DNA of 64,000 bases from Candidatus Gottesmanbacteria bacterium (GTDB lineage Bacteria > Patescibacteriota > Microgenomatia > UBA10105 > UBA927), in assembly GCA_023245335.1 (NCBI GenBank), contig JAHFKK010000001.1, positions 936,019 through 1,000,018 of the forward strand. The letters run 5' to 3'. Numbering within the stretch: position 1 is the first letter of the stretch; each line of letters opens with the position of its first letter. The translations under genes were made by a program, and so were the position numbers. Below are positions 3,774 to 60,691 of the stretch, piece after piece. A model generated the notes under the pieces. That model was not told the origin of the DNA, made no database searches, and saw only the letters and a list, made by a program, of their open reading frames with translations.

Positions 3774-3790
3774 ATATCTATTCTACCGCA

Positions 3791-5083: not shown

Positions 5084-5131
5084 AATCGTATGTATTTTGC
5101 AACTTTTCTCATCTTATCATACAATTTCCTT

Positions 5132-5605
5132 ATGACCGCAACCGCTCATGCCCTGGTCGCAGGCAGTATTGCCGCCCATTTCACCGACCCCGCAACCGCC
5201 ATCCTCCTTGCGCTCACGTCTCACTATGTCATGGACAGCATCCCCCACTGGGACTTCGGAACCGATTGGCGAACCCGTCCGAAGGCACAAACCGGCGCGC
5301 TCGCGATCCTTGAGACACTTTTTGGCATGACCGTCGCCGTATGGGCATTCCATGGTATTGTCGCCTTACCGCTTCTTCTTGCGACCATCGTCGTCTCATT
5401 GCTGCCGGACTGGCTGGAAACGCCGTGGTATATATTTTTCGCGCGCCGTGACTCTAAAGGAGTATCGAAACATGCTCCCCTTTTGGAAAAATTATCATAC
5501 GGATTTTATAAAGTGCCAAACGTCTTTCATACCAAAGCATCAATGGGTTTTGGATTACTCACACAGGCAGTCACCGTCGGGTTCTTCTATATCCTTCTCA
5601 AGTAA
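5132..5605 (+). CDS. Membrane-bound metal-dependent hydrolase-like protein (DUF457/YdjM-like)
   Basis: Small 4-TM protein with conserved His/Asp (HYVMDSIPHWDFG). The ORF track start at 5051 overlaps the divergent MFS gene, so the internal Met at 5132 was chosen. Confidence 0.4.
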   Translation: MTATAHALVAGSIAAHFTDPATAILLALTSHYVMDSIPHWDFGTDWRTRPKAQTGALAILETLFGMTVAVWAFHGIVALPLLLATIVVSLLPDWLETPWYIFFARRDSKGVSKHAPLLEKLSYGFYKVPNVFHTKASMGFGLLTQAVTVGFFYILLK

Positions 5606-5612
5606 CCGTGCG

Positions 5613-6569
5613 TCATGTACGTCGTACACGAATGAGGCCGGAGCACGGAATAATCTTGATCGTATTCTTTTCAAACTCATCTAGGAGTAGGTTCATCCCG
5701 AGACTATCGGAACTCATGTGACCCGCGATAACCAGATTGATGTGGTACTTGATCGCTTCCTTACGGTGTTCTTCCCCGGCGTGCATACCGATAACCGTGC
5801 CCACTCCCGCCATAGCCAATTTTTCGTAAATAATATGTGAAGGTTCTGTGCCTCCGGTGAATTCGATAGGGGCAATCTTTCCGGCCCTGTTTTTGGGGTC
5901 ACCGGCAAATATCACGGGACCTGCTTTCCCTTTCATCGCTTCGATGTATTCCGGTTCTGCTTTCAAAACTTCCAATACTTCTCCGACTGTTTCCGGTTTT
6001 CGTTTTTCGAAAAGCTTTTCCATGTACGTATGAACGAGATTGTCCGTGATCGTATGGGTGCTCATAAATGCAAAGCCCAGTAATCTCGCGGCGTCAATTG
6101 CCTGGGTGTGATTTATAGGACTAAACCGACGCTGGACCTCACCGATCCTATCGCGCATGACGCCTTCGGCGATATTTATCGGTACGCCGTATTTCGCCCA
6201 AATATCCGCCTGCACATCCATAACTTCATGAAGAGCCGCGAGTGACCCGCCTTCCGGATGATGCGTCAAAAGTAAATCGATTCCCTCGCCTTTTTGGTTC
6301 AGACGATCGGCAAGAAGCACCTCAGCCGCGTTTATATCTATGCCGGCCATAATGGTGTCTACGTCGAGGTCGGACTTCCCGAGATAAATGCGCGAATCCG
6401 TATACGGATTCGTCAAATCTTCCGTGTCAAATTCTTTTTGCTTGGATTTGGGAAGTTCTGCGTATTCCTTTTTCCTGCGGGCAAGCATTTTTTCGACGCC
6501 TCCCTTTCCGCGTGGATCCGCTTCTATACCCATTTTTACCGCTAACGCATACAGGTTTTGTAGTTTCAT
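5613..6569 (-). CDS. Nif3-family dinuclear metal-centre protein (YqfO/GTP cyclohydrolase 1 type 2 homolog)
   Basis: LLLTHHP and C-terminal AGHMSSD motifs matching Nif3 (ThHP...GHYxsE). Start trimmed to MKLQNLY because the longer ORF runs into the tRNA. Confidence 0.7.
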   Translation of the reverse strand: MKLQNLYALAVKMGIEADPRGKGGVEKMLARRKKEYAELPKSKQKEFDTEDLTNPYTDSRIYLGKSDLDVDTIMAGIDINAAEVLLADRLNQKGEGIDLLLTHHPEGGSLAALHEVMDVQADIWAKYGVPINIAEGVMRDRIGEVQRRFSPINHTQAIDAARLLGFAFMSTHTITDNLVHTYMEKLFEKRKPETVGEVLEVLKAEPEYIEAMKGKAGPVIFAGDPKNRAGKIAPIEFTGGTEPSHIIYEKLAMAGVGTVIGMHAGEEHRKEAIKYHINLVIAGHMSSDSLGMNLLLDEFEKNTIKIIPCSGLIRVRRT

Positions 6570-6599
6570 ATCCAAAATTGTATCACATCTTCCTTGGAG

Positions 6600-6684
6600 T
6601 GGCGTGGGAGAGACTCGAACTCTCACGAAGTGTTATCTTCACAGGTTTTTGAGACCTGCGCGTCTACCATTCCGCCACCACGCC
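6600..6684 (-). tRNA. tRNA-Leu (anticodon CAA), type II with long variable arm
   Basis: Reverse complement reads GGCGTGG-TG-GCGGAATGGTAGACGC...CAGGT-CTCAAAA-ACCTG...long variable arm...GAGAG-TTCGAGT-CTCTC-CCACGCC-A. Acceptor and T stems pair, the D-arm is tRNA-Leu-like, and the anticodon loop is CU-CAA-AA. Confidence 0.85.
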
Positions 6685-6731
6685 CTATGGGTATTATACT
6701 GCAAAAACGCGGGCAACGAGAAGCCGGGGTA

Positions 6732-8084
6732 TTAATTAGCGGCGGGTGGTTGTACCTCCGTATGTTTCCGTTCGACGGAATAGAATCGGATCCGGTCACC
6801 GCGGAAAATAAGGTCTATCTCGCCCAAGGGACCGTTCCGGTGCTTGGCGATCCTGAGCTTGGTCGGAATCTGTTCGCCCCACATCGTCTGATCGGCTTCC
6901 TCTCGGTAGATAAACATGACAACGTCTGCATCCTGTTCGATGGAACCGGACTCGCGTAAGTCAGAAAGTTCCGGTACTCTCGTCCCCCGCGCTTCTACCG
7001 CCCGCGACAGTTGTGAACAGGCAAGAACCGGAATACGGAGCTCACGCGCGAGATTTTTCAGACTCTGGGATATGATGGATACTTCCTGCACGCGGTTATC
7101 AAATTTACGGCCGGCATCGGCAAGCTGTAAATAGTCGACGATAATGAGCTTCACGCCGTGCTCCACCTGAAGCCTCCGGGCTTTCGTCCGCATTTCGACG
7201 ATATTCATGCCCGGCGTATCGTCGACATACAGCGGCGCCTCGGCCAACTCCCCCATGGCATCGGATAGCTTGGTGAAGTCATCGTCGGTAAGCCGTCCGG
7301 TTTTCAACCGCCAGGCGTCTATATCCGCCTGCGATACGAGGAGCCGGTCCACCAATTCTTCCTTGCTCATTTCCAGAGAAAATATGCCAGTCGGAATTTT
7401 TTCCTTGACCGTCGCGTATTGGGCGATATTGAGTATCATCGCGGTTTTGCCCGTGCCGGGTCGGGCGGCTAGGATAATAAGGTTCGCGTCCTGCATCCCG
7501 GCGAGCTTACTATCGAGTTCCGTAAATCCGGTCGGTATTCCCCGGAGTCCTCCGGCTCGTTTATGAAGTTCGTCCAACCGGTCAAACGACGAGGCCAATG
7601 CATCCTTAATCGGGATAAAATCGCGCCGAGTGGTTGACTGGGATATAGCAAAGATCTCCTGTTCCGCCTCTTCGACGATATCTCGTGCGTTACCTTCTTC
7701 TTTGAACGCAAGTTCCGTAATTTTGGCGGCCGACTGGACGAGCTGCCGCTTGGTCGCCTGCTCCTGGATGATGCGCGCATATTGCTCCGCATGCGCGCTG
7801 GTCGGAACGATATTGAGAAGTTCCGAAAGATACGCGGCTCCTCCGACACCCTTAAGTGACCCTGTTTTTTTCATCTGCGCCGTGACCGTCACGACGTCAA
7901 TTGGTTCATGTGCTTCATAAAGCTCCATCATCGCGGAATAAATGAGTCCGTTGGCGTCTTTGTAGAAATGGTGCGGCCGCAAAAACTCAGCGACATCTAT
8001 CATGGTGTCTTTATCGATGAGAATAGCTCCCAGGACGGACTGTTCGGCAACATCATCATGGGGCGGGACTTTCACGTTTGGCAT
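6732..8084 (-). CDS. dnaB: Replicative DNA helicase DnaB
   Basis: N-terminal DnaB helicase domain (DVAEQSVLGAILID), Walker A GARPGTGKT, RecA-like C-terminal fold. Confidence 0.9.
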   Translation of the reverse strand: MPNVKVPPHDDVAEQSVLGAILIDKDTMIDVAEFLRPHHFYKDANGLIYSAMMELYEAHEPIDVVTVTAQMKKTGSLKGVGGAAYLSELLNIVPTSAHAEQYARIIQEQATKRQLVQSAAKITELAFKEEGNARDIVEEAEQEIFAISQSTTRRDFIPIKDALASSFDRLDELHKRAGGLRGIPTGFTELDSKLAGMQDANLIILAARPGTGKTAMILNIAQYATVKEKIPTGIFSLEMSKEELVDRLLVSQADIDAWRLKTGRLTDDDFTKLSDAMGELAEAPLYVDDTPGMNIVEMRTKARRLQVEHGVKLIIVDYLQLADAGRKFDNRVQEVSIISQSLKNLARELRIPVLACSQLSRAVEARGTRVPELSDLRESGSIEQDADVVMFIYREEADQTMWGEQIPTKLRIAKHRNGPLGEIDLIFRGDRIRFYSVERKHTEVQPPAAN

Positions 8085-12526: not shown

Positions 12527-13564
12527 ATGAAATTACCAAAAGCTTACGCAACAGTTGTACAAAAACGCACGATAGACATGACCGTGAGCGTGAATCCGCT
12601 CGGGTGTTCTCCCCGTGCGCTCCAAGCGCTTAATTCTATGTCGACTGCCGATGTCAGTACCTACCCTGACCAAAAAAGGCTTCTATCCTCCCTAGCGGTG
12701 AGGTACGATATGCGACCGGATATGATCCTTTTGGGAATCGGGTCAGAACAACTCATAAAGCTCGTTTGCCAGACATTTTTAAAGCGTCAGGATACTGCAT
12801 TCGTGGAATCCGGCTCCTTCTTTCTTTTCTCCAGAGAACCGAAAATTCTTGGCGCAAGAGTCGTATTTTTTGACTTTAACAACGCTAAGAGATTCCGAAA
12901 AAGGCCCACACTTCTGTTTCTCGCCAATCCGACTACGCCCGCCGGTATTAATCGGACAAACGAAGAAATACTTCAGGTTATAGACCTCGTTAATCCTATG
13001 ATTGCAGTGGTTGATGAGGCAAACGGTGAATTCAGAAATGGTTCGCTTATTTCGGATATCCGGAAACGCAGGAATCTCGTTGTTTTACGGACGTTCTCAA
13101 AAACACTCGGCCTTGCGGGACTACGGATCGGCATGGCATTCGGGAACTCGGATGTCATATCCCGCATGGGTGAACTGCAACAACCGTTTCCTGTCACGTC
13201 AGCGGCCTTAGCCGCGGCGGAAGCCGCACTCGACGACATATCATTTACCCGTAAAACTATACGGTTCGTGAAGGCTGAACGGGCCTTCCTGACAAAAGAA
13301 TTGATTACGAGAGGTTTTTCGGTATCTCCATCGGTGACCAATAATCTGTTCATATCCGGAAAAAACATAAAAAAAGTGATCTGCGAATTAGAAAACCGTG
13401 GTGTAAGCGTAATCGACGGCGCATACTTCCCCGGTAATACGCAGCCCGGATTCCGCATATCTCTGAGAGATAGAAGAACCAATCGTAAATTCTTGTCGAA
13501 AGTTGACGAAGTGCTCGCTTGTATGGGACAAAATAAGTTGATAGGATCAAAGGAGATTCTATGA
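12527..13564 (+). CDS. Class I/II PLP-dependent aminotransferase, histidinol-phosphate aminotransferase-like
   Basis: HisC-like blocks: NPLGCSP, LANPTTPAG, VDEANGEF, RTFSKTLGLAGLRIGMAFG (PLP-binding Lys). GGGAGG RBS; ATGA overlap with hisS. Confidence 0.75.
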   Translation: MKLPKAYATVVQKRTIDMTVSVNPLGCSPRALQALNSMSTADVSTYPDQKRLLSSLAVRYDMRPDMILLGIGSEQLIKLVCQTFLKRQDTAFVESGSFFLFSREPKILGARVVFFDFNNAKRFRKRPTLLFLANPTTPAGINRTNEEILQVIDLVNPMIAVVDEANGEFRNGSLISDIRKRRNLVVLRTFSKTLGLAGLRIGMAFGNSDVISRMGELQQPFPVTSAALAAAEAALDDISFTRKTIRFVKAERAFLTKELITRGFSVSPSVTNNLFISGKNIKKVICELENRGVSVIDGAYFPGNTQPGFRISLRDRRTNRKFLSKVDEVLACMGQNKLIGSKEIL

Positions 13565-14772
13565 ACACAACACAACCGCTCAAGGGTTTCCGGGATTTCC
13601 TCCCGGCCGAGGCAGCCAAAAGAAAATGGCTGAGGGATAAGCTCGCCGCGATCTGCGAATCATGGGGGTATTTGCCGGTTGAGACGCCGACCCTCGAACC
13701 TTTGGAAATTTTTACCGGCGCAATCGGCGAAGATGAAAAACTGTTCTTTAAGTTCAAAGACCAGGGCGATCGTGATGTAGCGCTCCGATATGACCAAACG
13801 GTGCCGACCTGCCGGCTCATCGCCGAATACCAAAACTCACTGACATTCCCTTTTAAGCGCTACCAAATCCAGCCCGCTTTCCGCGCCGAGAAGCCGCAGA
13901 AGGGCAGATACCGCGAATTCACCCAGGTGGACGCGGATATCTTCGGCATCAAAACTCCGGACGCAGATGCCGAAACCATCGCGCTCTCTCTCGATATTTA
14001 TAAACAGCTTGGATTTAAACGCCCGCTCGTACGCATCAACACCCGCGCCCTATTTAAAGACATACCTTATGGAGCAATCGTTTCTATCGACAAAATCAAA
14101 AAAATCGGCGGCGAAGGCGTGCTCGCCGAGATGAACCGCAAAGGCATTTCGTCCGATAAGGCAAAAGAGTATCTCAACTACGTCAAAAATCTGACTCCCA
14201 ATGAAGAAATCACGTTTATCCTGAAGTATCTCAAGGACTACGGATTCCCGGACGACTGGTATGAATTTGATCCGACGATCGCCCGCTCCTTCTCCTACTC
14301 CATGGGCCCCATATGGGAAGTGGAAATACCGGAAGCCGGCGGATTATCAGTCCTCGGTGGAGAGCGCTACGACGGTCTAATCGAAAAATTAGCAGGCAAA
14401 GATATAGGCGGCACGGGATTCGGACTGGGATTTGACCGGACACTCGAAGCGGCTGACGCACTCGGGCTCACCCCGACCATCACGACAAGCGGGCAGATAT
14501 TGATGACGGTGTTTGCGGTGGGTAGCCTGCCGCAAGCGCTCGAGATCACCCGTTTGCTACGAAGCGGCGGCGTCTACACCGACCTGTATCCGGCTCCCGA
14601 TAAACTGGACAAACAGTTAAAGTACGCGGACAGGAAAGGCATCCCCTACGTCGTCATCCAGGGGCCCGATGAAGCCAAACGCAACGTCATGAAGCTCAAA
14701 AATATGCAGACCAAAGAACAGGAAGAGCTCACTGTCCAACAGGTCATCGACAAACTCACCGTCGCTTCATAA
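13561..14772 (+). CDS. hisS: Histidine--tRNA ligase
   Basis: Class II aaRS motif 2 FRAEKPQKGRYREFTQ, HisRS-specific blocks, C-terminal anticodon-binding domain. Confidence 0.9.
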   Translation: MNTTQPLKGFRDFLPAEAAKRKWLRDKLAAICESWGYLPVETPTLEPLEIFTGAIGEDEKLFFKFKDQGDRDVALRYDQTVPTCRLIAEYQNSLTFPFKRYQIQPAFRAEKPQKGRYREFTQVDADIFGIKTPDADAETIALSLDIYKQLGFKRPLVRINTRALFKDIPYGAIVSIDKIKKIGGEGVLAEMNRKGISSDKAKEYLNYVKNLTPNEEITFILKYLKDYGFPDDWYEFDPTIARSFSYSMGPIWEVEIPEAGGLSVLGGERYDGLIEKLAGKDIGGTGFGLGFDRTLEAADALGLTPTITTSGQILMTVFAVGSLPQALEITRLLRSGGVYTDLYPAPDKLDKQLKYADRKGIPYVVIQGPDEAKRNVMKLKNMQTKEQEELTVQQVIDKLTVAS

Positions 14773-24089: not shown

Positions 24090-25328
24090 ATGGCTAATCC
24101 CTATCAGCACTACTTATCGCTCCATGAATCGGTCGATCCCACGAAGCACATCATCGCGACATTTGCGCTCTCGGTAACCGGTGAGCCGTTTGACCAGACC
24201 GCAGGGGGTGTCGCTGCGGAATCATCGGTCGGTACGTGGACGGATGTCGGGCTTGAGGACAAAAAAATCTGGGATATGCTGCACGCGAAAGTGACCGACG
24301 CGGATGAAAAGACGGGCACGATCACGATCGCCTATCCCCTTGACCTTTTTGAACCCGGCAGTATCCCGCAGCTTCTCTCATCTATTGCAGGCAACGTCTT
24401 CGGGCTCAAGGAAATATCACGTCTGCGGCTTCTCGACCTCGCGTTTCCGGAAGTCTACGTCAAAAGCTTCCCCGGCCCGGCGCTCGGCGTAGACGGCATC
24501 CGCAACCTCACGGGTGTCCGTGACCAACCGATCCTGGGGTCCATCATCAAACCCAAACTGGGACTCTCAAGCGCCGACCACGCCAAAGCCGCGATGGAAG
24601 TTTTTGATGAAGGCATACACCTCGTCAAGGACGACGAAAACCTGACCAGCATGTCGTTCAACAACTTTTACACCCGCGTGGATGAAGTGACGGACCGCAT
24701 GAATGAGAAGCATTATCTGGAAATCGGCAAGGCAAAAGTATACGCGTTTAATATCACGGCAAGTTACGAAGAAATGATGAAACGGGCAAACTACGTCCGG
24801 GACAAAGGCGCTAATTGTCTCATGATGGATGTCCTGACCGCAGGATTCAGCGGGGTCGCCGGCATACGAAATAGGAACTACGGCCTCATGATCCACGGAC
24901 ACCGCGCCATGCACGCGGCATTTACCCGGTCCCAAGAATACGGCGTCACCATGATGGTCATCGCCAAACTCGCGAGGCTCACTGGCGTCGACTCGTTTCA
25001 CACCGGCACCGTCGTCGGCAAAATGCAGGGCGGCAAGGATGAAGTGGTCAAGATCAACAATTTCCTCCGCTCGGATTGGTATGGCCTTAAGCCGGTACTG
25101 CCGACCGCTTCCGGCGGACTCCACCCCGGACACATTCCGGACCTTATGCACATCCTCGGCAACGATATGCTCCTCAACTTCGGCGGAGGCATCCACGGGC
25201 ATCCCGACGGCACACCCGCAGGCGCAAGGGCCGTGGTCCAGGCGACCTATGCAACACTATTAGGCGTTCCCCTCGCCCAAGCGAAAGAAAGCAAAGAACT
25301 CCAACGCGCACTCGAAAAGTGGCAATAA
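24090..25328 (+). CDS. Ribulose-1,5-bisphosphate carboxylase/oxygenase large subunit, form II/III (CPR/archaeal type)
   Basis: Active-site blocks GSIIKPKLGLS (carbamylated Lys), GIHLVKDDENL and GGGIHGHPDG; about 410 aa as for form III-like enzymes. Confidence 0.85.
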   Translation: MANPYQHYLSLHESVDPTKHIIATFALSVTGEPFDQTAGGVAAESSVGTWTDVGLEDKKIWDMLHAKVTDADEKTGTITIAYPLDLFEPGSIPQLLSSIAGNVFGLKEISRLRLLDLAFPEVYVKSFPGPALGVDGIRNLTGVRDQPILGSIIKPKLGLSSADHAKAAMEVFDEGIHLVKDDENLTSMSFNNFYTRVDEVTDRMNEKHYLEIGKAKVYAFNITASYEEMMKRANYVRDKGANCLMMDVLTAGFSGVAGIRNRNYGLMIHGHRAMHAAFTRSQEYGVTMMVIAKLARLTGVDSFHTGTVVGKMQGGKDEVVKINNFLRSDWYGLKPVLPTASGGLHPGHIPDLMHILGNDMLLNFGGGIHGHPDGTPAGARAVVQATYATLLGVPLAQAKESKELQRALEKWQ

Positions 25329-26308: not shown

Positions 26309-27772
26309 ATGAAAATCCGGCTCCACATCATCGCATTTCTTGCCGGCATACTTCCTTTCGTCTTTCTCACCAAGGCACTTCTCTTCACCAATCCTCCGGT
26401 CTGGCCGGATGAACCGGTATTTACGTCGATCGCAAAGCATGTTGCGGACACCGGCAAAATCGGCACCGTCATATACGGAATCAATGATTTCAAAACCGAC
26501 CAGGGATCATTTCCCTACCCGCCGGTGTATTTTTGGGTGTTGGGAGCGTGGGGGAAATATTTCGGATTCTCTATCGCATCTGTTCGCGCGTTATCGATCG
26601 GTATCGCACTCCTCACCCTCCTTATTCTCTACGGCATACTTATCGAGCTCTTTAAAAAACCATACGTCGCCACCATAGGGCTTATCCTCATTACGACCGA
26701 TATTTGGTTTAACCGAATTTCCCGGCTCGGCCGGATGGAAATATTAGTAAGCTTCTTTACCGCCGCCGCCTTCTATGCGTTTCTTATCATGCGAAGACAA
26801 AAACGGATACGCGCGGGTCACATCCTCCTCACGGGCGTGCTCGCTGCCGCCGCGTTTCTCACGCATCCCATAGGCATACTCGCGACCATGACGATCTCCG
26901 CGCTGACCGTCATGTCCCGCATACGCAAAAGCGACAAAATCAAAATAATTTCCTGTTTGGTTATTTGCCTTACCGCCCTCACCGGCATATGGCTCGTAAG
27001 CTTGGGCACGATATTTCCGTATTTCCTGAAAGAGCTTCGCTACGCGGCGCTTCGCAAGTCAACGCTCCCGCCATACATCCTGCATCTTGTCACCACGTCC
27101 GACGTCTGGAAATATATATGGCTCGGGCACCTCACGCTCTTTGCTATCGCGCTCAACCAGATCTATAGGCGGAAAAAATATTCCGTACTGTTTTTTCTCG
27201 TTCCTGTCATCCTCGCGTACGGTCTTGTCTATTTCGGGACAGAGATGTGGTACATAGGATATCTCCAACCCTGGATGACGTTCTTCTCTATCGCGACCCT
27301 GCTCTCTATAAATAAGCGCACGCTGTTGTATCAGTTCACTGTTCTTCTCATTATTGTCATAACCGTTATCAACGTCATCATGTTCGGGACAAACGCCGGC
27401 GTCTCCGACACCATCCATGCCGCCGGTGGGAATTATGCAAAGTTTTCTCAAGCTGTCGATAAAGAAGTACCCCAACGTGCACGGGTGCTTGTCTCCGTGA
27501 TCCCGGATCCGACGTATCTCCTTTGGGAAAAAAGGAGTACTACCGGCGTATTGGAATTTTTCATGCCTCCTCTGAACACCGCATCGAATTATAAAAAAAT
27601 CCTCGATACTGTCGACGTAGTCGTCGCCAATAAGTTTCTTGAACCGATGCTGCCGTCCTATGTACGGCAAAATACCGCAGGGACTCCGAGGACGATATAC
27701 TCCGGGGGCTATTCCGCAACCGTATATATCCTGGTACCCAAAAACCAGCGCGTCTACACCGCGGGCAAATAG
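26309..27772 (+). CDS. GT-C fold glycosyltransferase (PMT/ArnT-like, GT39/GT83)
   Basis: Polytopic membrane protein of about 12 TM helices; N-terminal loop VWPDEPVFTSIAKH typical of PMT/ArnT-like enzymes. Confidence 0.65.
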   Translation: MKIRLHIIAFLAGILPFVFLTKALLFTNPPVWPDEPVFTSIAKHVADTGKIGTVIYGINDFKTDQGSFPYPPVYFWVLGAWGKYFGFSIASVRALSIGIALLTLLILYGILIELFKKPYVATIGLILITTDIWFNRISRLGRMEILVSFFTAAAFYAFLIMRRQKRIRAGHILLTGVLAAAAFLTHPIGILATMTISALTVMSRIRKSDKIKIISCLVICLTALTGIWLVSLGTIFPYFLKELRYAALRKSTLPPYILHLVTTSDVWKYIWLGHLTLFAIALNQIYRRKKYSVLFFLVPVILAYGLVYFGTEMWYIGYLQPWMTFFSIATLLSINKRTLLYQFTVLLIIVITVINVIMFGTNAGVSDTIHAAGGNYAKFSQAVDKEVPQRARVLVSVIPDPTYLLWEKRSTTGVLEFFMPPLNTASNYKKILDTVDVVVANKFLEPMLPSYVRQNTAGTPRTIYSGGYSATVYILVPKNQRVYTAGK

Positions 27773-32741: not shown

Positions 32742-34391
32742 TTACCGCACCACCACCGCTTTATATACACTATGAGTGTGATCCGGCGCCTGAAAGGTAT
32801 AGACCGGCTGGTCTTTGGGAAATACATCCGTATTCCCGTTGACGATAACGAGTGACCCTTTTGGAAAAAAAGCTGCTGCATGCGGCAATTTCTTCACGTC
32901 GTCGGGTATGAAGACGAAGTACAGTGAACCAAACTGATATCCGTTGAGATTCCATACCGGTATCGTATGCGCGGTATTCTGATGGAAAACAGCCGGGGTG
33001 AGCCCGGTAAGAAACGCATATTGTGTCACCCAGGGAAGCGTCCCGTCAAAAAAGACATACGAGTATGCATACTGGTGTGCTACCCCGTAGCGTATAGCAT
33101 CGTTTTGTTCCTTTGACCACCATTCGGACGCATAGACCGGATAGTCAAAAAAATATGTGAACAGGTACGATGAGATATATACCGCAATGATGACTACGGT
33201 GCCGACTTTTGTCACCAGCTTCACCACCCCCTGATACCGCGAGACTCGGTCTAAAACGACACCGAGTCCATACGCGCTAAACATAATCGGCACCGGAAGC
33301 ATCATGACACTCCTATAAATATAACTGCCGGATGATAGCCCGCCCGGCAACGGACCGATGAGGAGCCACGAAAGAAGCAAATAACGTAACCTCTTCTTTT
33401 TTGTCCATACATAGAAGAAACCAAGAAAGAATAACGGAAGCTCAAACAAGTGATATTCTCCGTGATTTCCGACCGCGCGCTGCAGGTTCCCGGACCCGTT
33501 GACGAAAAACCAGTCCAGAGAAAAGATATTGACGTAACTCGTAAGGACATGTTTATACCCGACCGTCACTTTATTATGAAACAGGCGTGAAAGCCAGCGC
33601 GGCGCAGTACTCAATAGTTGTTCTCCTCCGGCAGTCGCTGCTATCTGTTGCGGATCGAAGACGCTCGATCGCTCATAATCATGAATCACGCCAGACGCAA
33701 AAATACGATACAGGACCGTCCCAAAAATTACCCAGAATATGAATGACGTTTTCAAAACCGACCACCGAATCGGCTGTATATGCGGCCACTTATAAATCGT
33801 CAAAACGATCAAAAATGGAACCAAAAAGAGCCTGGGCGCATCATATGAATATAAAGACAGTGCAAAAAGGGCAAACGACAGTGCGTATCGCCACATATGC
33901 CGTGAGGCCGTCAAAAAATAATACGTACCCGAAAGCACCAAGACCAGAGACAGTGATTCCAAAAGTCCCTGACGCGAAATCTGTATCGCCCAGGGATTCA
34001 CCGACATAAGAAACGCGGCAATAAGGGCAATACGCGTATCCCGGGTTAGGGACTTCACAATACCAAACAACGCGAGTATCGAGACGATGCCAAGGAGTGC
34101 CGACGGCAAACGATCCACGTATGTGTGTAGTCCGAACGCGCCTACAAACGGCACGAGTATCCAGCTGAGAAGCGAAGGGAACGTTCCGCCGATATTCGTA
34201 TCCCGAAATCCAACGAGCTTCACCTGACCGGATAAGTCTTTTCCGGTTTTGAGGAGACTATACGCCGTATAACCGGTAAGCGCCTCATCCGCGTGCAGTC
34301 CCGAGGGTATCGAATCCAACTGCCACAGCCGGATGAACCCTCCCGCAATGACAATAATCCCAAGTACATACCACACGACTCGTTTGGACAT
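32742..34391 (-). CDS. GT-C fold glycosyltransferase (PMT/ArnT-like, GT83/GT39)
   Basis: Polytopic; N-terminal loop HADEALTGYTAYSL resembles the DE/HAD motif loop of PMT/ArnT enzymes. Confidence 0.7.
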   Translation of the reverse strand: MSKRVVWYVLGIIVIAGGFIRLWQLDSIPSGLHADEALTGYTAYSLLKTGKDLSGQVKLVGFRDTNIGGTFPSLLSWILVPFVGAFGLHTYVDRLPSALLGIVSILALFGIVKSLTRDTRIALIAAFLMSVNPWAIQISRQGLLESLSLVLVLSGTYYFLTASRHMWRYALSFALFALSLYSYDAPRLFLVPFLIVLTIYKWPHIQPIRWSVLKTSFIFWVIFGTVLYRIFASGVIHDYERSSVFDPQQIAATAGGEQLLSTAPRWLSRLFHNKVTVGYKHVLTSYVNIFSLDWFFVNGSGNLQRAVGNHGEYHLFELPLFFLGFFYVWTKKKRLRYLLLSWLLIGPLPGGLSSGSYIYRSVMMLPVPIMFSAYGLGVVLDRVSRYQGVVKLVTKVGTVVIIAVYISSYLFTYFFDYPVYASEWWSKEQNDAIRYGVAHQYAYSYVFFDGTLPWVTQYAFLTGLTPAVFHQNTAHTIPVWNLNGYQFGSLYFVFIPDDVKKLPHAAAFFPKGSLVIVNGNTDVFPKDQPVYTFQAPDHTHSVYKAVVVR

Positions 34392-34462
34392 GATGATCGT
34401 AATAATAACATGAAAACAACCGGATGTACTCGAAATGACCCGCATTGGGTTACGGGTTTCCT

Positions 34463-37752: not shown

Positions 37753-38291
37753 ACCCGCAAAATCTCCTTAAGTTTCTGTATCGCCCGACTCTGGAGGACC
37801 CGGACATGACTCACGGGTTTTTCCAAAATCCGACTAATCTCTTCATTATCCAGCTCTTCAATAAATTTGAGGACAATAATCTCGCCGTAGGTCTCCGGCA
37901 ACTTCGGGATGGCGCTGCGGACGTCCTCCATCTGCAATGCGGTCACTGTCTGCTCCTCGGGAGATGTGCCGGGATCAGGAACATGTAATGCCTCCTCAAG
38001 CGGAACGACCGCTACCTTATGTTCCCGATAAAAATCAATAATCATATTACGCGCAATGCGGAAAACCCATGCTTCAAACGGAATTCCCCGCTCGTCAAAC
38101 TGACCGATATGCTCAAATATCCGCACGAATATCTGCTCGGTCAGATCTTCTGCATCTTCCCGGCTCGTGACACGAAAATAGACGAACCGATAGACACGTG
38201 CGACTAACGCGTCGTAGAGTTCGCCCAGAGCCGACCGATCGGCAGCCTTGCAGCGAGCGACGATATGATCGATAGTACTATCTCTCCTCAT
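37749..38291 (-). CDS. ECF-type sigma-70 family RNA polymerase sigma factor
   Basis: Region 2 (RVYRFVYFRVTSREDAEDLTEQIFVRIF) and region 4 helix-turn-helix (DNEEISRILEKPVSHVRVLQSRAIQKL). Confidence 0.8.
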   Translation of the reverse strand: MRRDSTIDHIVARCKAADRSALGELYDALVARVYRFVYFRVTSREDAEDLTEQIFVRIFEHIGQFDERGIPFEAWVFRIARNMIIDFYREHKVAVVPLEEALHVPDPGTSPEEQTVTALQMEDVRSAIPKLPETYGEIIVLKFIEELDNEEISRILEKPVSHVRVLQSRAIQKLKEILRV

Positions 38292-38384
38292 ATACTGAAA
38301 CGAGACGCAGCCGATTTCGTAACAGCATCATACCAAATTCAGCCTACTTCGGGCGATCGCCTAAGTGATACAATCACCTCACCC

Positions 38385-39959
38385 ATGAGGACTCACCGGA
38401 TACTTTGGCTCATCGCGCTTCTATTTTTGGTCATCGGGTGCCTCACGATACATGACTACAACATCACCTGGGACGAACCCGAGAATTTCATGATCGGCAG
38501 GATTTACTTCAACGCATACCTCCATCCGCTTTCAGACATCCTTGCACACCCGACGACACTCCCAATCCCTCCACCCCTGCCTTTCCGAACGGAAACGCAT
38601 TATGAACGATATCCGCCGTTTGCGGACACGCTCGCCTCCATTACCTCGTTCGCCCTTGGTGAGCGCGCAAAGCTCCTCGATCCTATCGCGGCCCATCATC
38701 TCACCGCAGTTATATTCGGATCTCTTGCCATACTTACGACCGGACTCATCACCGTCGAGCTGACCGAGTCCCCGATTGCCGCTATAGTCGCCGCACTCGC
38801 GCTTGCCACCTATCCGCTGTTTATCGGGTTAAGCCACACCGACATCAAAGACGTACCGGGGGCCGCGATGTTTACGCTCACGATATATACGATTCTTCGC
38901 GCTATCAAAAAGAAATCATACATCACCACACTTATCGCGGGTATGACGTGGGGTATGGCTCTGGCAACAAAAGTTTCAAATACGTTTGCACCGGTTGTTA
39001 TCGCCGTCACGCTTCTTCTGACAATGCGTGTATGGCATCGCCGCCTTCTCCATCAGTCGATAAACCATGTCGTACTTTTTTCCCTGGCAGGTGGCACGTC
39101 ACTTCTCGCTGCTTGGCCCTGGCTTATCACGGACACTATCCCACACCTATTATTAATTTATCAGTATATAAACGAGGTTGGGAGAGGATTACCTGTGTTG
39201 TTCGCCGGCCGAGTCTATCACGCCGGTATTGATACACCTTGGTATTATGCGCCAGTATCTATTGCTGTCGTCACTCCTATCCCCATGCTTCTTGCCGCTA
39301 TCTTAGGTATCGGGGTAAGTATTCATCGCCAAAAAAATGAACAGGGAAAGCCTCTCCTCCTGCTTCCGGTCGTTTGGGTATGTATCATACTTACTCGCTA
39401 TCTCTTTCCGTCTATCACTGTCTACAACGGTATACGACAATTTTTGGAAGTTATACCTGCTATAGCCATACTGACCGGCATCGGCGTCGGTTGGATCATA
39501 CGGAAATTCGGAACTATGACACGATTTTCCCCAATATTGACGGCACTTACTCTCGCGGTTCTTTTTATTCCGACCGCACGAAACGACGTCGTATTACATC
39601 CGTATGAGATGCTCTATTTCAACAGAATGAGCGGCGGAATCCAAAAAGCCTCAACAACGTATGAATTCGACTATTGGGGATTTTCTGCCGGCGAACTGGT
39701 TAAACGCGTCAACGCATTGCCCGAAGTCCAGGGGAAAACGGTAAATATAAATTGGCTGGATTTCCCGTCCTGGTATTTCCCTGATAACCGCCTTACATTC
39801 GTCCCGAGTGACGCAAGCCCCGATTACGTGATCGTGCCTCATTCCGAAAACTTTTTTGTAGGCGCCAAAACATACTGGGACACACACGGGAGACGTCTCT
39901 ACACCATAACACGGGTGGGCGCTGAAGTCGGCTACCTGTACGAGGCGGTGAAACCCTGA
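38385..39959 (+). CDS. GT-C fold glycosyltransferase (PMT/ArnT-like)
   Basis: Polytopic membrane protein; DEPENF loop motif after TM1. The ORF track start at 38265 overlaps the divergent sigma gene, so the internal Met was used. Confidence 0.65.
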   Translation: MRTHRILWLIALLFLVIGCLTIHDYNITWDEPENFMIGRIYFNAYLHPLSDILAHPTTLPIPPPLPFRTETHYERYPPFADTLASITSFALGERAKLLDPIAAHHLTAVIFGSLAILTTGLITVELTESPIAAIVAALALATYPLFIGLSHTDIKDVPGAAMFTLTIYTILRAIKKKSYITTLIAGMTWGMALATKVSNTFAPVVIAVTLLLTMRVWHRRLLHQSINHVVLFSLAGGTSLLAAWPWLITDTIPHLLLIYQYINEVGRGLPVLFAGRVYHAGIDTPWYYAPVSIAVVTPIPMLLAAILGIGVSIHRQKNEQGKPLLLLPVVWVCIILTRYLFPSITVYNGIRQFLEVIPAIAILTGIGVGWIIRKFGTMTRFSPILTALTLAVLFIPTARNDVVLHPYEMLYFNRMSGGIQKASTTYEFDYWGFSAGELVKRVNALPEVQGKTVNINWLDFPSWYFPDNRLTFVPSDASPDYVIVPHSENFFVGAKTYWDTHGRRLYTITRVGAEVGYLYEAVKP

Positions 39960-42477: not shown

Positions 42478-43304
42478 CGAAGTCCATCGAGTGTATGACT
42501 CTCCCCGGCGTTTACTGTCCGTTCTGGCATATCGTGACGAATGATATGGGCCGACCCTGTCCCCAACACCTCAAACGTGTTCTTTGCGCTGTCGATACAG
42601 CAGGCTGTCGTTTCGTCGATTCCCAGAATTGTTATGTTGGGAGGCAGCATACGACGAAGTGTCTCAAATCGCTTCATGCCCATCCAGCAGCGCGTCGTAT
42701 CAAAATCCTCGCCCTCCGTGTTATTCCAATGGGGTATCACGGCAATGGAAATCCCGTAGGGCTTCAATATATCTAATCCCTCTATCCAGTGGATATCCTC
42801 ACCGGCTTTATATATTTCGTACACCGGAAGTGCTACGCGGCCGATCGCGACGGCGGTCGCCGATCCCAAACAAAGCGTCGCTCCCCGTGCGTGAGCCTCC
42901 ATCATGCGCTTCCAGGCGAGCGTATCCCGAAGGTGGGTAATCACATAGCTCGGGCTCCCTGCCCCGCTGTAGAGATAATCAATCTCCCGTATGACATCGA
43001 CCGTGCTTGGGGTATTTGTACTTTTCTCTCCGTCTCTGCGCCAGGCAGGGATGCGCACGATATCGGGTTTCCAGTCGCGTAAATGCTCACGGAAAAAGTC
43101 TTCCATACGCTCCGGCCATCCGTGCATCGCGTTCACCTCGAATCCCGTCGGCGTTTCTAGAATTCCGATTTTTACCGGCGCTGAAAGCGACACACGCCGA
43201 AAAACATCTTCATGTATTTTCCGGCCCGTAGGGGTAAGCTCACCGGAACCGAATAAAACGATGACGCCGGGGGTACGGCTATCACGGCCGGAGCGCCGCG
43301 TCAT
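42474..43304 (-). CDS. Class I glutamine amidotransferase-like / peptidase S51-like protein
   Basis: Flavodoxin-like start VIVLFGSGE; possible nucleophile elbow LCLGSATAV; assignment weak. Confidence 0.4.
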   Translation of the reverse strand: MTRRSGRDSRTPGVIVLFGSGELTPTGRKIHEDVFRRVSLSAPVKIGILETPTGFEVNAMHGWPERMEDFFREHLRDWKPDIVRIPAWRRDGEKSTNTPSTVDVIREIDYLYSGAGSPSYVITHLRDTLAWKRMMEAHARGATLCLGSATAVAIGRVALPVYEIYKAGEDIHWIEGLDILKPYGISIAVIPHWNNTEGEDFDTTRCWMGMKRFETLRRMLPPNITILGIDETTACCIDSAKNTFEVLGTGSAHIIRHDMPERTVNAGESHTLDGLR

Positions 43305-44746
43305 ATGGTCTTTTTTTTTACACGGGAGCCCTGAGGCGTATCCTCTATTTCATATCCGCTCTTGACGATTTGATCGCGGACCGTATCGGATTCTGCGAAT
43401 TTTTTGGCGGCGCGGAATTCATCCCGTTTACGAAGCAGCGCTTGAATGCCGGCAGGCGCCTCTTCCTCCGTCGGCGCTTCAGAAATGTCGGCAAGCTTGA
43501 GACCCAAGACGTCATCAAAATCGAGAAGTAAATCAAATTTATCCTGACTCGGCACATTGGATTTGATAAGCTCCCAGACGACCGCGAGGGCCTGCGGAGT
43601 ATTCATGTCGTTTCCGAGTGCCGAATCAAATTTAGCGCGATACGCGTCTACTTTGGCAAGCTTCTCTTCACTAAGTGCTGAGCGTTCGCGTTTCTCCGCT
43701 TTCAGTTTGCTAATCTGAATTCGTAACTCCGACAGTGCTGATTGCGCAGCATGCAAGGATTCCCAGGTAAAATTGAGTTCGCTGCGGTACTGACTCGTCA
43801 AGTAAAAATATCGGAGCGCCAAAGGATCAATTCCTTTCTTTATCACGTCCTCGACGGTATAAAAATTACCGAAACTCTTACTCATTTTTTTACCGTCTAC
43901 GCGCAGAAAATTATAGTGTATCCAGTACTTCACGAACGGTTGACCGGTCGCTCCCTCACTTTGGGCGATTTCATTGGGATGATGAACCGGTATGTGGTCA
44001 ATGCCGCCGGTGTGAATGTCAAAACTGTCGCCGAGGTATTTCATGCTCATCGCCGAACACTCGATATGCCAGCCAGGGAAACCGTCGCCCCAGGGGCTAT
44101 CCCAATGCATCGCATGATCCGCAAATCTCCCGACACGTTTAAACCATAGCGCGAAATCCGCAGGATGTTTTTTGTGTTCTCCGGTTTGCACGCTGTCGCG
44201 AACCGCTGTTTTTTTCTCCGTGAGTTTCTGGCGCCCGAAAAGTTTATCGTATCCCGGAAAGGTCGTCACGTCGTAGTAGACCGCTTCAGGCGTTTCGTAG
44301 GCGTGACCGCGATCCACGAGCTTTTGTATGAGGGCAATCTGCTCGGCTATGTGCTCCGTGGCTTTACAGATAACGCTCGGCCGCAAGACGTTTAATGAAT
44401 CCATTGTGGTATAAAAATGATCAGTATAAAATTTCGCTACATCCCACACGGTCTTGCCGTACTTTTTTGCACCCTTTTCCATTTTGTCCTCACCCTCATC
44501 CGCGTCTGATGCCAAATGTCCGACATCCGTCACGTTCTGAACATGCGTCACGTCATACCCGAAACGCGTAAGTATGCGCCGTAATACATCGTCACCGACA
44601 TACTTGCGGCCATGGCCGATATGCGCGTAGTCATAGACGGTCATACCGCACGTATAGAGACCCACTTTGGGAGGATGTATGGGCACAAAATCTTCTATCT
44701 TCCGGGTAAAACTGTTATAGATATGAAGCATAGGCAATCTCCACAA
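43301..44746 (-). CDS. cysS: Cysteine--tRNA ligase
   Basis: HIGH motif (HIGHGRKY), KMSKS motif (KMSKSFGN), zinc-binding Cys residues. Confidence 0.9.
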
Positions 44747-58901: not shown

Positions 58902-60134
58902 CTATGTCCCTGTCAATGTAGACATCACCGCTTGTAAAGGAATCAGCTTCGCCTCTTTCTCACTGCGTTTCTTCAGCTCAATCTGATCTCCCGTCTTGGC
59001 AGAGACGACAAGTCGAAGCGGTATACCGATGAGATCCGCATCGCCAAATTTGACCCCTGCCGATACTTTTCTATCATCCCAAAGCACTTCAACATGATTT
59101 TTTTGCAGTGTTTCATAGAGAACGTGTGCTTTTTCCTCCCCGCCGGGCAAGGAAACGAGATGTACCGCAAACGGCGCAATCTGCGGAAACCAAACAATAC
59201 CCCGGTCATCATGGGAGACCTCTACGGCGGTCCCCATGACGCGCGTCGGTCCGATGCCGTAACTGCCGAACCATACCGGTTTTTTCTGTCCCGTTTCGTC
59301 GGTAAAACTGACTTTCATTTTTTCGGCGTACCACTTTCCCAATGGAAAAATGTTACCGACTTCGATAGATTTGCCTGTACGGATATCCTTTTTCCCGCAC
59401 AAAGGACACGTATCTATTTTTTCGTCCATCAATTCTTTATTGACTCCCCAATCACAGGTACCGCAATAAAATATAGTGTCTTCACCGCCGTCTGAAAGCA
59501 CCTGAAACTCATGCGTGTGTTTATCGGTAAATACTCCGCCGCTTGCTTCTGTAACCCTAATCTCAAATCCCAATCGCTTAAAGATCTTTTTATATGCTTC
59601 TTTCACCTTTTCGTAGTATTCCATGAGATCTTCTTCCGATACGTGTGCGCTATAAAGATCTTTCATCATAAATTCCCGTCCTCGCAGGATTCCGCTTCTC
59701 GCGCGAGGTTCGTTACGGAACTTTGTCGAAAAATGATATACGGCGACGGGCAAATCCTGATAACTTTGGATATGCTTTCGCAGCAAATCCATAACGATCT
59801 CCTCATGAGTAAAAGATAACGCATACTCGTGTTCACGCGAGTCTTTCAGTTTATACAAAATTTCTGCTGCTTTATCCCACCTACCGGTTTCATTCCAAAT
59901 TTCCTTCGGATGCAGAAGCGGCATGAGCATCTCCTGTCCGCCTATGGCGTTCATTTCTTCGCGGATTATCTCGTTAATCTTGGTAACCACGCGAAATCCA
60001 AGCGGCAGAAGCGTCCAACTCCCCGCCATGAGTTGATCCACAAACCCTGCACGTACCAAGAGTTGATGGTTGACGCTCTCTGCGCCGGTTGGCGCAGTTT
60101 TTTTCGTTTTTGGAAATACATTCGAATACTTCAT
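58902..60134 (-). CDS. proS: Proline--tRNA ligase (compact form)
   Basis: Class II motif 2 FRNEPRARSGILRGREFMMKDLYS, motif 3 region, ProRS-like N-terminus; C-terminal CxxC zinc knuckle. Confidence 0.85.
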   Translation of the reverse strand: MKYSNVFPKTKKTAPTGAESVNHQLLVRAGFVDQLMAGSWTLLPLGFRVVTKINEIIREEMNAIGGQEMLMPLLHPKEIWNETGRWDKAAEILYKLKDSREHEYALSFTHEEIVMDLLRKHIQSYQDLPVAVYHFSTKFRNEPRARSGILRGREFMMKDLYSAHVSEEDLMEYYEKVKEAYKKIFKRLGFEIRVTEASGGVFTDKHTHEFQVLSDGGEDTIFYCGTCDWGVNKELMDEKIDTCPLCGKKDIRTGKSIEVGNIFPLGKWYAEKMKVSFTDETGQKKPVWFGSYGIGPTRVMGTAVEVSHDDRGIVWFPQIAPFAVHLVSLPGGEEKAHVLYETLQKNHVEVLWDDRKVSAGVKFGDADLIGIPLRLVVSAKTGDQIELKKRSEKEAKLIPLQAVMSTLTGT

Positions 60135-60143
60135 ATACCCTCC

Positions 60144-60479
60144 TTAATAGAGTTTACCACCAATAACTGCTTTTTCTTTATCAGGAACGATCAGTATACA
60201 TTCATGATCTCCATCCGGCACACCTAACGTCAGTACTTCCGATAAAAAGGGTCCGATTTGCCGGGGAGGAAAATTGACGACGCCAAGGACCTTTTTCCCC
60301 TTGAGCGCGTCTTTCGTGTAGTGCTTGACGAGCTGTGCACTGGATCGTTTGACCCCGATCTCCGGACCGAAGTCGATCGTGAGTTTATACGCGGGTTTAC
60401 GCGCTTCGGGGAAATCGTCAACGGCAGTGATGATGCCGACCCGGACATCCAATTTTAGAAAATCATCATATGTTGCCAT
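60144..60479 (-). CDS. tRNA-binding protein (CsaA/Trbp111-like OB-fold, MetRS C-terminal domain homolog)
   Basis: FLKLDVRVGIITAVDDFPEARKPAYKLTIDFGPEIG...VVNFPPRQIG matches the EMAP/Myf tRNA-binding domain; AGGAGG RBS. Confidence 0.8.
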   Translation of the reverse strand: MATYDDFLKLDVRVGIITAVDDFPEARKPAYKLTIDFGPEIGVKRSSAQLVKHYTKDALKGKKVLGVVNFPPRQIGPFLSEVLTLGVPDGDHECILIVPDKEKAVIGGKLY

Positions 60480-60500
60480 ATTCCTCCTTTTTTACCATCA

Positions 60501-60655
60501 AAAAACCCGCCACCCCACTCTCGGGGTAAGGACGGGTAATCGTGGTACCACCTTACGTTACTTCTTATTACTGCTGTCACGGGCTTACCCGTTTCCGTTC
60601 TTGGCGGAACCGCTTGTCCTGTTCGGTGGCAGGACTTATAACGCGTTTATGAACA
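60501..60655 (-). ncRNA. T-box-like riboswitch leader (proline specifier) with intrinsic terminator
   Basis: Minus strand AAGGUGGUACCACG (T-box consensus AGGGUGGNACCGCG). GUAAGG...CCUUAC antiterminator helix shares its 3' arm with the terminator ACCCGUCCUUACCCCgagaguGGGGUGGCGGGU-U6. Upstream hairpin GUCCUG-CCACCGAA-CAGGAC displays CCA/CCG. Confidence 0.6.
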
Positions 60656-60661
60656 TCCATT

Positions 60662-60691
60662 ATTATATCTTTTACTGCTTCTCGCCGTCAA
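60662..60691 (-). promoter_or_regulatory. Consensus sigma70 promoter TTGACG-N18-TATAAT driving the T-box leader
   Basis: -35 at 60691-60686 (overlaps the rseP stop), -10 at 60667-60662. Confidence 0.5.

Follow-up and report, generated by a model that had tools for sequence, protein, structure and literature searches.

A minimal T-box leader with a probable tRNA-Pro specificity upstream of csaA-proS in Microgenomates bacteria

The 64,000-nucleotide stretch of contig JAHFKK010000001.1 considered here (hereafter, the window) carries on its minus strand a csaA-proS gene pair, encoding a Trbp/CsaA-type tRNA-binding protein and a prolyl-tRNA synthetase (ProRS), preceded by a structured leader. This raises the question of what the leader senses and how it acts on the two genes. 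A first-pass annotation of the locus had proposed a compact T-box-like riboswitch displaying a proline codon. The present analysis makes it very probable that the leader is a transcription-attenuating T-box riboswitch specific for tRNA-Pro, and it is most likely the uncharged form of this tRNA that is sensed. Judged from alignments, the element is a minimal T-box variant, a member of a conserved Microgenomates family that standard annotation missed. The argument starts from what is directly observed, namely the sequence elements themselves, two mutually exclusive structures, covariation, homology to the Rfam T-box model RF00230 and a consistent link with proline genes.

The discriminator half of the leader contains the elements listed in the first-pass annotation, that is, a near-consensus T-box sequence and a GUAAGG/CCUUAC antiterminator sharing its 3' arm with a terminator followed by six U (Table 1). 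The 3' strands of helices A2 and A1 make up the 5' arm of the terminator, so that the two structures are mutually exclusive, with a calculated stability of -2.9 kcal/mol for the antiterminator in a constrained fold versus -22.1 kcal/mol for the terminator. A weak antiterminator that depends on its ligand to win is the usual arrangement in T-boxes. The terminator and its U-run end 11 nt ahead of a free AGGAGG motif, and no predicted structure sequesters this Shine-Dalgarno sequence. In the 5' half, the GUCCUG/CAGGAC hairpin noticed previously forms the end of Stem I, above an internal loop with GUUAUAA on its 5' side and AA on its 3' side, which occupies the position of the kink-turn (K-turn) in degenerate form. 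A miniature Stem II, devoid of S-turn, and a Stem IIA with an F-box-like CCGUGA motif (CCGUUA in the consensus) follow. For the IIB pairing of the pseudoknot, GC at 60572-60571 is a possible partner, giving two fixed G-C pairs; a third pair forms in 6 of 14 sequences, the window leader not being among them. The minimum free energy fold additionally contains a long-range helix enclosing the decoding module (60644-60638 with 60560-60554, GCGUUAU/GUAACGU); it was discarded as probably fortuitous, because it is not conserved in the related leader L083 (L numbers designate the loci retrieved for comparison).

The covariance check with RF00230 that the first-pass annotation had suggested returned a match. 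In a 361-nt search with permissive filters, the model aligns over its whole length to 60650-60525 with 30.7 bits (E = 3e-5), a score below the curated gathering threshold of 93. Within this alignment, the discriminator and antiterminator are near-perfect and Stem II and the IIA/F-box are recognized, while the 88 model positions of Stem I correspond to 24 nt and Stem III is deleted. The expectation of a reduced form devoid of a long Stem I is thus borne out, and the reduction goes further than supposed, Stem III being absent and Stem II miniature. At curated thresholds, an Rfam scan of the whole window reports one tRNA and no T-box. The relatives L085 and L131 score 47.1 and 52.0 bits, respectively, and the whole leader family therefore lies under the curated cut-off. 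Whole-locus scans ranked by E-value gave no RF00230 match in L047, L030 and L065, nor did a narrow scan of L030; it is solely in narrow searches that RF00230 detects the leaders of the family.

For the 5' domain, a dedicated covariance model was built on seven core leaders, because MAFFT misaligned the divergent L094 and L047. This model finds a single copy in the window (90.8 bits), about 20 related loci in total, from genomes and metagenomes of Microgenomates (29-102 bits), ten copies among 80 metagenome loci retrieved with CsaA as anchor, and nothing significant among 80 reference-genome loci retrieved with ProRS as anchor. The first model alignment, A3, was noisy (rows L159 and L130, an incomplete L131 and an L091 out of register); in its successor, A4, L168 remains out of register, its row being placed on an inserted hairpin. 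Extra hairpins between Stem I and Stem II are indeed present in L091, L093, L166 and L168, those of L168 and L091 having been taken for Stem I by the model, and in L086/L088 the loop of Stem II is enlarged by an insert of about 30 nt. The window leader is thus one member of a family, not a singleton.

The compensatory changes in related leaders that the first-pass annotation had called for were found in the specifier hairpin, Stem II, A1 and A2. In a 15-sequence model alignment, 98.7% of the cells form standard pairs, versus 25-51% when the partners are slid by 1-3 columns, and changes on both sides occur at seven pairs, three among the six of the Stem I hairpin and four among the five of Stem II, a count reached by 0/500 shuffles. 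These figures lean towards structure, the leaders being related to one another and their alignment having been fitted to the model. One further pair of the Stem I hairpin varies on one side, so that four of the six vary altogether, Stem II is paired in 100% of the cells, and Stem IIA is invariant across the family alignment. De novo folding with RNAalifold, from a MAFFT alignment of five leaders without Stem III, gave 27 pairs, 9 of them compensatory, and an architecture that agrees with the one described here: hairpin, Stem II, IIA, unpaired linker, A1, 7-nt bulge and A2.

The switch region is conserved in the same manner. In all 14 leaders examined, A1 is formed by UAAGG/CCUUA or CAAGG/CCUUG and the bulge reads UGGUAxx (UGGUACC in 11 of them), the UGGU being fixed, with a U at the N position throughout. 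The sequence of A2 is free (ACG, GCGAG, ACCCCGACG, GUCCCGAU, GAGAG and others), yet A2 is paired in 14/14. The terminators are wholly different in sequence, and in each of the 14 leaders the terminator overlaps the 3' strands of A2 and A1 and is followed by a U-run.

What does the 5' domain read? The codons CCA and CCG followed by a purine had been pointed out in the Stem I loop; CCG followed by A (60626-60623) is borne out as the specifier of the window, whereas CCA is not the conserved codon. Every leader with a readable Stem I keeps CCG or CCC followed by a purine in this loop while the stems change, and proline is the sole amino acid with a codon present in every loop. The loop CCACCGAA on a GUCCUG/CAGGAC stem is common to the window and L083. 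CUCCGAA is carried by GUCCCG/CGGGAC in L170 and by GUUCCG/CGGAAC in L084, and CACCGAA by AUUCCG/CGGGAU in L168. Several leaders display AGAUCCGAC, AUAUCCGAC or UGAUCCGAC on GUUCCG/CGGAAC (the 3' arm being also CGGAAU or CGGGAC), and L086 and L165 display AAUUCCGGU on GUUCCG/CGGGAC. UACCCAG stands on AGGG/CCCU in L094 and UUUCCCG on AUUUGG/CCAAAU in L047. Moreover, the Stem I of L131 carries a GGC-GAAA-GCC cap above an S-turn specifier loop of the canonical type (AAUAGUA ... GAA-CCG-A), and RF00230 places the CCG-A of this loop on the specifier position of the model. On this alignment, L131 is a bridging form between a codon in a hairpin loop and the canonical specifier loop.

The genes behind the leaders are proline-related, consisting of either of two non-orthologous ProRS types and, in L165, of proBAC in addition. 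The Pro codon is kept ahead of both ProRS types and of proBAC, so the first-pass concern that the codon might vary without regard to the downstream gene did not materialize. The constancy of the codon, together with the proline genes downstream, favors the interpretation of the loop as a proline specifier. A second amino-acid specificity for comparison is not available in the window, because hisS (13561-14772, plus strand) and cysS (43301-44746, minus strand) directly adjoin their preceding genes, with neither leader nor T-box found at either gene. Within the window, T-box control therefore appears specific to the proline cassette. In Bacillus subtilis, proBA and proI carry T-boxes responding to tRNA-Pro (PMC9245794). 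L165, from the Gottesmanbacteria metagenome-assembled genome GCA_016218255.1, parallels this case: at 3215-7811, a compact leader without Stem III precedes proB-proA-proC-csaA-proS, a complete operon for proline synthesis and charging, in which ProB is short (208 aa) and scores under the NCBIfam cut-off.

The distribution of the leader was approached from both genes. By its nearest relatives, the host is a member of the Candidate Phyla Radiation (CPR), as the first-pass annotation had assumed, close to Candidatus Gottesmanbacteria and other members of Microgenomates: the 80 reference-genome loci closest by ProRS all belong to Microgenomates (Gottesmanbacteria, Beckwithbacteria, Woesebacteria and others). 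In most of these 80 loci, proS directly adjoins rseP, without csaA and without leader, and a strict search for the T-box motif gave no match among them. Viral contigs, scanned with a pattern for the IIA/F-box motif, gave no match either. Even in L001 and L002, the Candidatus Gottesmanbacteria loci with the closest ProRS (79% identity), rseP adjoins proS (about 2983-3001) and both csaA and the leader are lacking. The leader-csaA cassette is thus patchy even among close relatives. The leader is missing in L001, L002 and L065. It was the CsaA-anchored search that revealed the family. The metagenome loci with the closest CsaA (77-84% identity) have a AAGGUGGUACC core and a terminator upstream of csaA. 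A database search with CsaA gave more than 120 clusters at 80-88% identity, some of them named Candidatus Gottesmanbacteria, and the six further clusters sampled on long contigs all have the leader (49-82 bits), in the common synteny rpsB-tsf-frr-rseP-...-leader-csaA-proS-...-HIT-rpsU-yqeY-ybeY-dnaX.

The leader lies directly upstream of csaA throughout the family, with L165, where proBAC stands in between, as the exception. The ProRS behind it belongs to one of two types, a short bacterial one (window, L094 and L047) or the archaeal-like TIGR00408 (L083, L085, L093 and L165-L173). Thus, the slot after csaA holds a bacterial-type enzyme of 410 aa in the window versus an archaeal-like one of about 482 aa (TIGR00408, ProRS-C_1) in L165-L174 (about 6340-7880), and the archaeal-like enzyme occurs in relatives whose leader and CsaA are the most similar to those of the window. 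Behind a leader-csaA unit that stayed the same, proS seems to have been replaced by a non-orthologous gene.

Divergent leaders are found in L047 (Woesebacteria), L094, L030 and L131. In the soil metagenome locus L131 (leader at 1975-2210), Stem III and the terminator are present, and csaA lies about 290 nt downstream; a Ca2+/H+ exchanger gene comes after csaA, and no proS was found within the 2.5 kb retrieved downstream of it. The L030 leader (2300-2640) combines a T-box core, with a UGGUAUC bulge, with a canonical F-box and a clear IIA/B pseudoknot (CUUGG/CCAAG). The 5' domain of this leader folds differently and resembles a three-way junction. Upstream of csaA-proS in L081 (about 820-890), the T-box-like fragment GAAGGUGGAACC has no matching A1 3' strand and may be a decayed leader.

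From these features, the following mechanism can be proposed. Transcription would start at about 60655, and the nascent leader would fold into a decoding module in which the Stem I hairpin is joined by a small Stem II and by Stem IIA. In the terminal loop of Stem I, CCG would pair with the anticodon of tRNA-Pro, probably assisted by the purine-rich loop of Stem II. If the tRNA is uncharged, its 3'-ACCA end would pair with the UGGU of the 7-nt bulge and stabilize the weak A1/A2 antiterminator, so that RNA polymerase would read through into csaA-proS. With a charged tRNA, or no tRNA, the stronger terminator would form and transcription would stop. A73 is the usual discriminator base of bacterial tRNA-Pro and fits the U at the N position of the leaders. 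The anticodon match and the UGGU-A73 match are putative and take the usual bacterial tRNA-Pro as their model. From sequence, we infer tRNA binding, sensing of the charge and functioning without elbow platform or Stem III.

The comparison with known systems shows where the leader is conventional and where it departs from them. With canonical class I transcriptional T-boxes (RF00230), it shares the T-box sequence, the A1/UGGN bulge/A2 structure competing with a terminator, Stem II and a IIA/F-box-like element, a codon matching the pathway, and aminoacyl-tRNA synthetase and biosynthesis genes as targets. Canonical members have a distal Stem I (AG bulge, distal loop and elbow platform) and an S-turn, whereas the window leader has neither: its Stem I is reduced to a 6-bp hairpin end devoid of the distal platform binding the tRNA elbow, and its codon stands in an 8-nt terminal loop instead of an internal specifier loop with the AGUA/GAA S-turn. 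Moreover, its Stem II has just 5 bp and a loop of 7 nt, it has no Stem III, and its aptamer measures about 120 nt, compared with at least 200 nt. The host, a CPR bacterium of the Microgenomates, the presence of csaA as first regulated gene and the score far under the Rfam threshold also set it apart.

The actinobacterial ileS T-boxes (TBDB class II; Mycobacterium, Nocardia) have, like the window leader, a truncated Stem I without elbow motif and a Stem II + IIA/B module retained next to the codon, on which they would depend; the IIB pairing of this module is putative in the window leader. They act by sequestering the Shine-Dalgarno sequence, carry an Ile codon and keep Stem III and a full Stem II with S-turn; the window leader, in contrast, has an intrinsic terminator, a free Shine-Dalgarno sequence and a Pro codon, and it lacks both Stem III and a cap helix over the specifier. 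The capped specifier loop of L131 presumably resembles that of ileS T-boxes with an ultrashort Stem I. The glyQS T-boxes are a reduced natural variant acting by transcription termination, as proposed here for the window leader. They dropped Stem II and IIA/B but retain Stem III and a long Stem I complete with elbow platform; the window leader is the reverse case, with Stem II and IIA kept and the distal Stem I and Stem III lost.

Several observations weigh against a functional tRNA-Pro switch. The window leader lacks both the distal Stem I platform and Stem III. According to a 2020 review, a long Stem I bearing the double T-loop motif that binds the elbow is generally needed in transcriptional T-boxes, the short or "ultrashort" Stem I forms are translational, mostly actinobacterial T-boxes, and Stem III, flanked by 5'-RRRxG ... 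AA-3', is described as indispensable for binding the tRNA 3' end (PMC7583486). At the K-turn position, the window leader has a degenerate AA/AA where L085, L086, L094 and L131 have GA/GA (a textbook K-turn in L085), and its IIA/B pseudoknot is no more than a possible pairing. The antiterminator of the window is very weak and its A2 has just 3 bp. The RF00230 score falls far short of the gathering threshold, and the relatedness of the family members makes the shuffle statistics overstate independence. Finally, no specifier or displayed Pro codon was located in the divergent leader L030, and no tRNA-Pro gene was found in the window or in any retrieved locus.

These points feed alternative explanations. 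The absence of the parts reported as essential (PMC7583486) and the weak antiterminator would suit a decaying relic that, after loss of the distal Stem I and Stem III, no longer responds to tRNA and leaves a constitutive attenuator or an idle terminator; the patchy occurrence, with L001, L002 and L065 lacking the leader and L081 seemingly holding a remnant, goes in the same direction. Stem III is, however, missing from at least six diverged leaders (it is absent from the window, L083, L094, L165, L170/171 and L173/174, while many relatives have it), in which A2 and the terminators differ completely in sequence and still pair, bulge (UGGUACC) and specifier being preserved as well. This pattern indicates purifying selection on both alternative structures. 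Also kept are the purines on either side of the lost Stem III: AAGAAG and UAACGUA in the window versus AAGAAG[hairpin]UAAAUA in L085, RNAalifold leaving the linker unpaired. The recurrence of forms without Stem III that have intact, covarying switches argues against simple decay, and we regard a relic as highly improbable. A related doubt concerns the specifier. The discriminator half could be a working T-box whose Stem I loop is no specifier, any uncharged A73 tRNA being sensed through NCCA/UGGU pairing alone, or the codon being elsewhere. The codon indeed stands in a plain hairpin loop of 7-9 nt, with neither S-turn nor internal specifier loop, no published example of a codon displayed in a hairpin loop was found, and L030 has no identifiable loop codon. 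Against this stand the invariance of CCG/CCC plus purine while four of the six hairpin pairs vary, the link made by L131 between the loop and the canonical specifier position, the lack of any other unpaired conserved segment with a Pro codon in the leader, and the retention and co-variation of the Stem II/IIA module, which supports the codon-anticodon interaction in known T-boxes. A loop without specifier role is likewise highly improbable.

It can also be imagined that ProRS or CsaA binds the leader as an operator, for instance with the hairpin as a mimic of an anticodon arm, in an autoregulation like that of ThrRS at Escherichia coli thrS. With 7 nt, the loops CUCCGAA and CACCGAA are as large as an anticodon loop, a tRNA-binding protein is the product of the first gene, and proteins of the Trbp type bind single-stranded 3'-CA ends (PMC11286949). 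The loops, however, hold a Pro codon and not the Pro anticodon (NGG), CGG occurring by chance in L086 and L165 alone; no predicted structure hides the Shine-Dalgarno sequence; the 3'-terminal CA read by Trbp does not exist in an internal leader segment; and the entire architecture is homologous to T-box RNAs. Such an operator has a very small probability in our view, and a transcription-attenuating T-box specific for tRNA-Pro remains the preferred reading.

The association with csaA deserves attention in its own right. For the CsaA homologue Trbp111, a 2024 co-crystal structure shows that the sole contact is with the single-stranded 3'-terminal CA of the tRNA, and not with the elbow, and its authors suggest a role in keeping tRNA tails from pairing with UGGN (PMC11286949). 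This led to the rejection of the idea that CsaA, by contacting the elbow of the tRNA, makes up for the missing platform. Because Trbp/CsaA-type proteins bind the tRNA 3' end that is read by the T-box bulge, CsaA could feed back on its own riboswitch. It is plausible, as a speculation, that CsaA competes with the bulge and thereby exerts negative feedback, and equally a plausible speculation that it hands uncharged tRNA to ProRS. A stronger proposal, that the T-box of about 120 nt works without elbow platform, S-turn and Stem III through its coupling to CsaA, as cofactor or feedback competitor, in a protein-coupled circuit confined to CPR bacteria, is tentative and, on balance, unlikely.

If the preferred T-box reading is right, T-box regulation extends to the CPR. 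The first-pass annotation had described T-boxes as classically Firmicute and Actinobacterial, which holds as the classical picture; a published account limits them to Firmicutes, Actinobacteria, Chloroflexi, Deinococcus-Thermus and Geobacter (PMC3766115). A full-text literature search for T-box together with CPR, Patescibacteria or the named CPR phyla returned no relevant report. The short-Stem-I model of TBDB was applied to Actinobacteria and to class I matches with a truncated Stem I, and to nothing else (PMC7778990). The curated Rfam threshold and the TBDB search design would both miss these leaders. The family forms a natural deletion series, from L131, with its capped canonical specifier loop and Stem III, down to forms like that of the window, which lack Stem III and display their codon in a mere hairpin loop next to a tiny Stem II; the terminator/antiterminator switch is intact in all of them. 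[quoted passage not shown] It may offer a very small natural scaffold for structural work or tRNA-sensor engineering. A testable feedback circuit is further suggested by its constant coupling to a protein that binds the 3' end of tRNA.

The TTGACG-N18-TATAAT promoter reported earlier is present and agrees with the consensus at 11 of 12 hexamer positions. Since promoter-like sites as a class are not enriched (6 found versus 5.0 expected), this match taken alone is weak evidence; comparable hexamers occur at the same location upstream of homologous leaders. The upstream gene is rseP, whose stop codon is overlapped by the -35 hexamer. The leader length, first put at about 150 nt, is revised to about 155 nt when counted to the terminator end, or about 176 nt when counted to the ATG. 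The ribosome-binding site (RBS) reported earlier is present, and the two genes announced behind it are confirmed by profile matches (Table 1), proS starting 10 nt downstream of csaA. The leader sequence is unchanged in four other public assemblies of the same organism and is therefore no assembly artefact.

Table 1. Positions of the leader, its structural elements and the adjoining promoter and genes in the window
Feature	Position	Strand	Description or basis
T-box leader	60648-60500	minus	sequence reading and mapping
Sigma-70-type promoter	60662..60691	minus	-35 TTGACG 60691-60686, 18-nt spacer, -10 TATAAT 60667-60662
Stem I	60611..60645	minus	base helix CGC/GCG, asymmetric internal loop, 6-bp hairpin
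Stem I hairpin GUCCUG-CCACCGAA-CAGGAC	60635-60616	minus	helix 60635-60630 with 60621-60616
Stem I terminal loop CCACCGAA, 8 nt	60622..60629	minus	proposed specifier CCG 60626-60624, conserved purine A 60623
Miniature Stem II UUCCG/CGGAA	60593..60609	minus	purine-rich 7-nt loop CCAAGAA; covariation, RNAalifold de novo
Stem IIA ACGG/CCGU	60577..60592	minus	loop GUAAGC, F-box-like CCGUGA; RF00230 alignment, family alignment
Unpaired linker CAGCAGUAAUAAGAAGUAACG, 21 nt	60556..60576	minus	purine motif AAGAAG / UAA kept, Stem III hairpin absent
Antiterminator	60526..60556	minus	A1, 7-nt T-box bulge, A2
Helix A1 GUAAGG/CCUUAC	60556-60551 with 60531-60526	minus	
T-box bulge UGGUACC, 7 nt	60550-60544	minus	
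Helix A2 ACG/CGU	60543-60541 with 60534-60532	minus	3 bp, loop AUUACC
T-box sequence AAGGUGGUACCACG	60554-60541	minus	12/14 positions match AGGGUGGNACCGCG
Intrinsic terminator hairpin	60537-60506	minus	12 bp, -22.1 kcal/mol
U6 run	60505-60500	minus	directly after terminator hairpin
RBS AGGAGG	60488-60483	minus	followed by ATG at 60479
csaA, 111-aa Trbp/CsaA-type tRNA-binding protein	60144..60488 (with RBS); coding span 60144-60479	minus	NF007495, 152.7 bits; PF01588
proS, 410-aa bacterial-type ProRS without INS editing domain	58902..60134	minus	TIGR00409, 441.7 bits, two matched stretches

Elsewhere in the window, the sole tRNA gene is a tRNA-Leu(CAA) (6600-6684, minus strand). A RuBisCO large-subunit homologue (PF00016 and PF02788) is encoded at 24090-25328 on the plus strand, with PMT_2 glycosyltransferase genes nearby at 26309-27772, 32742-34445 and 38265-39959.

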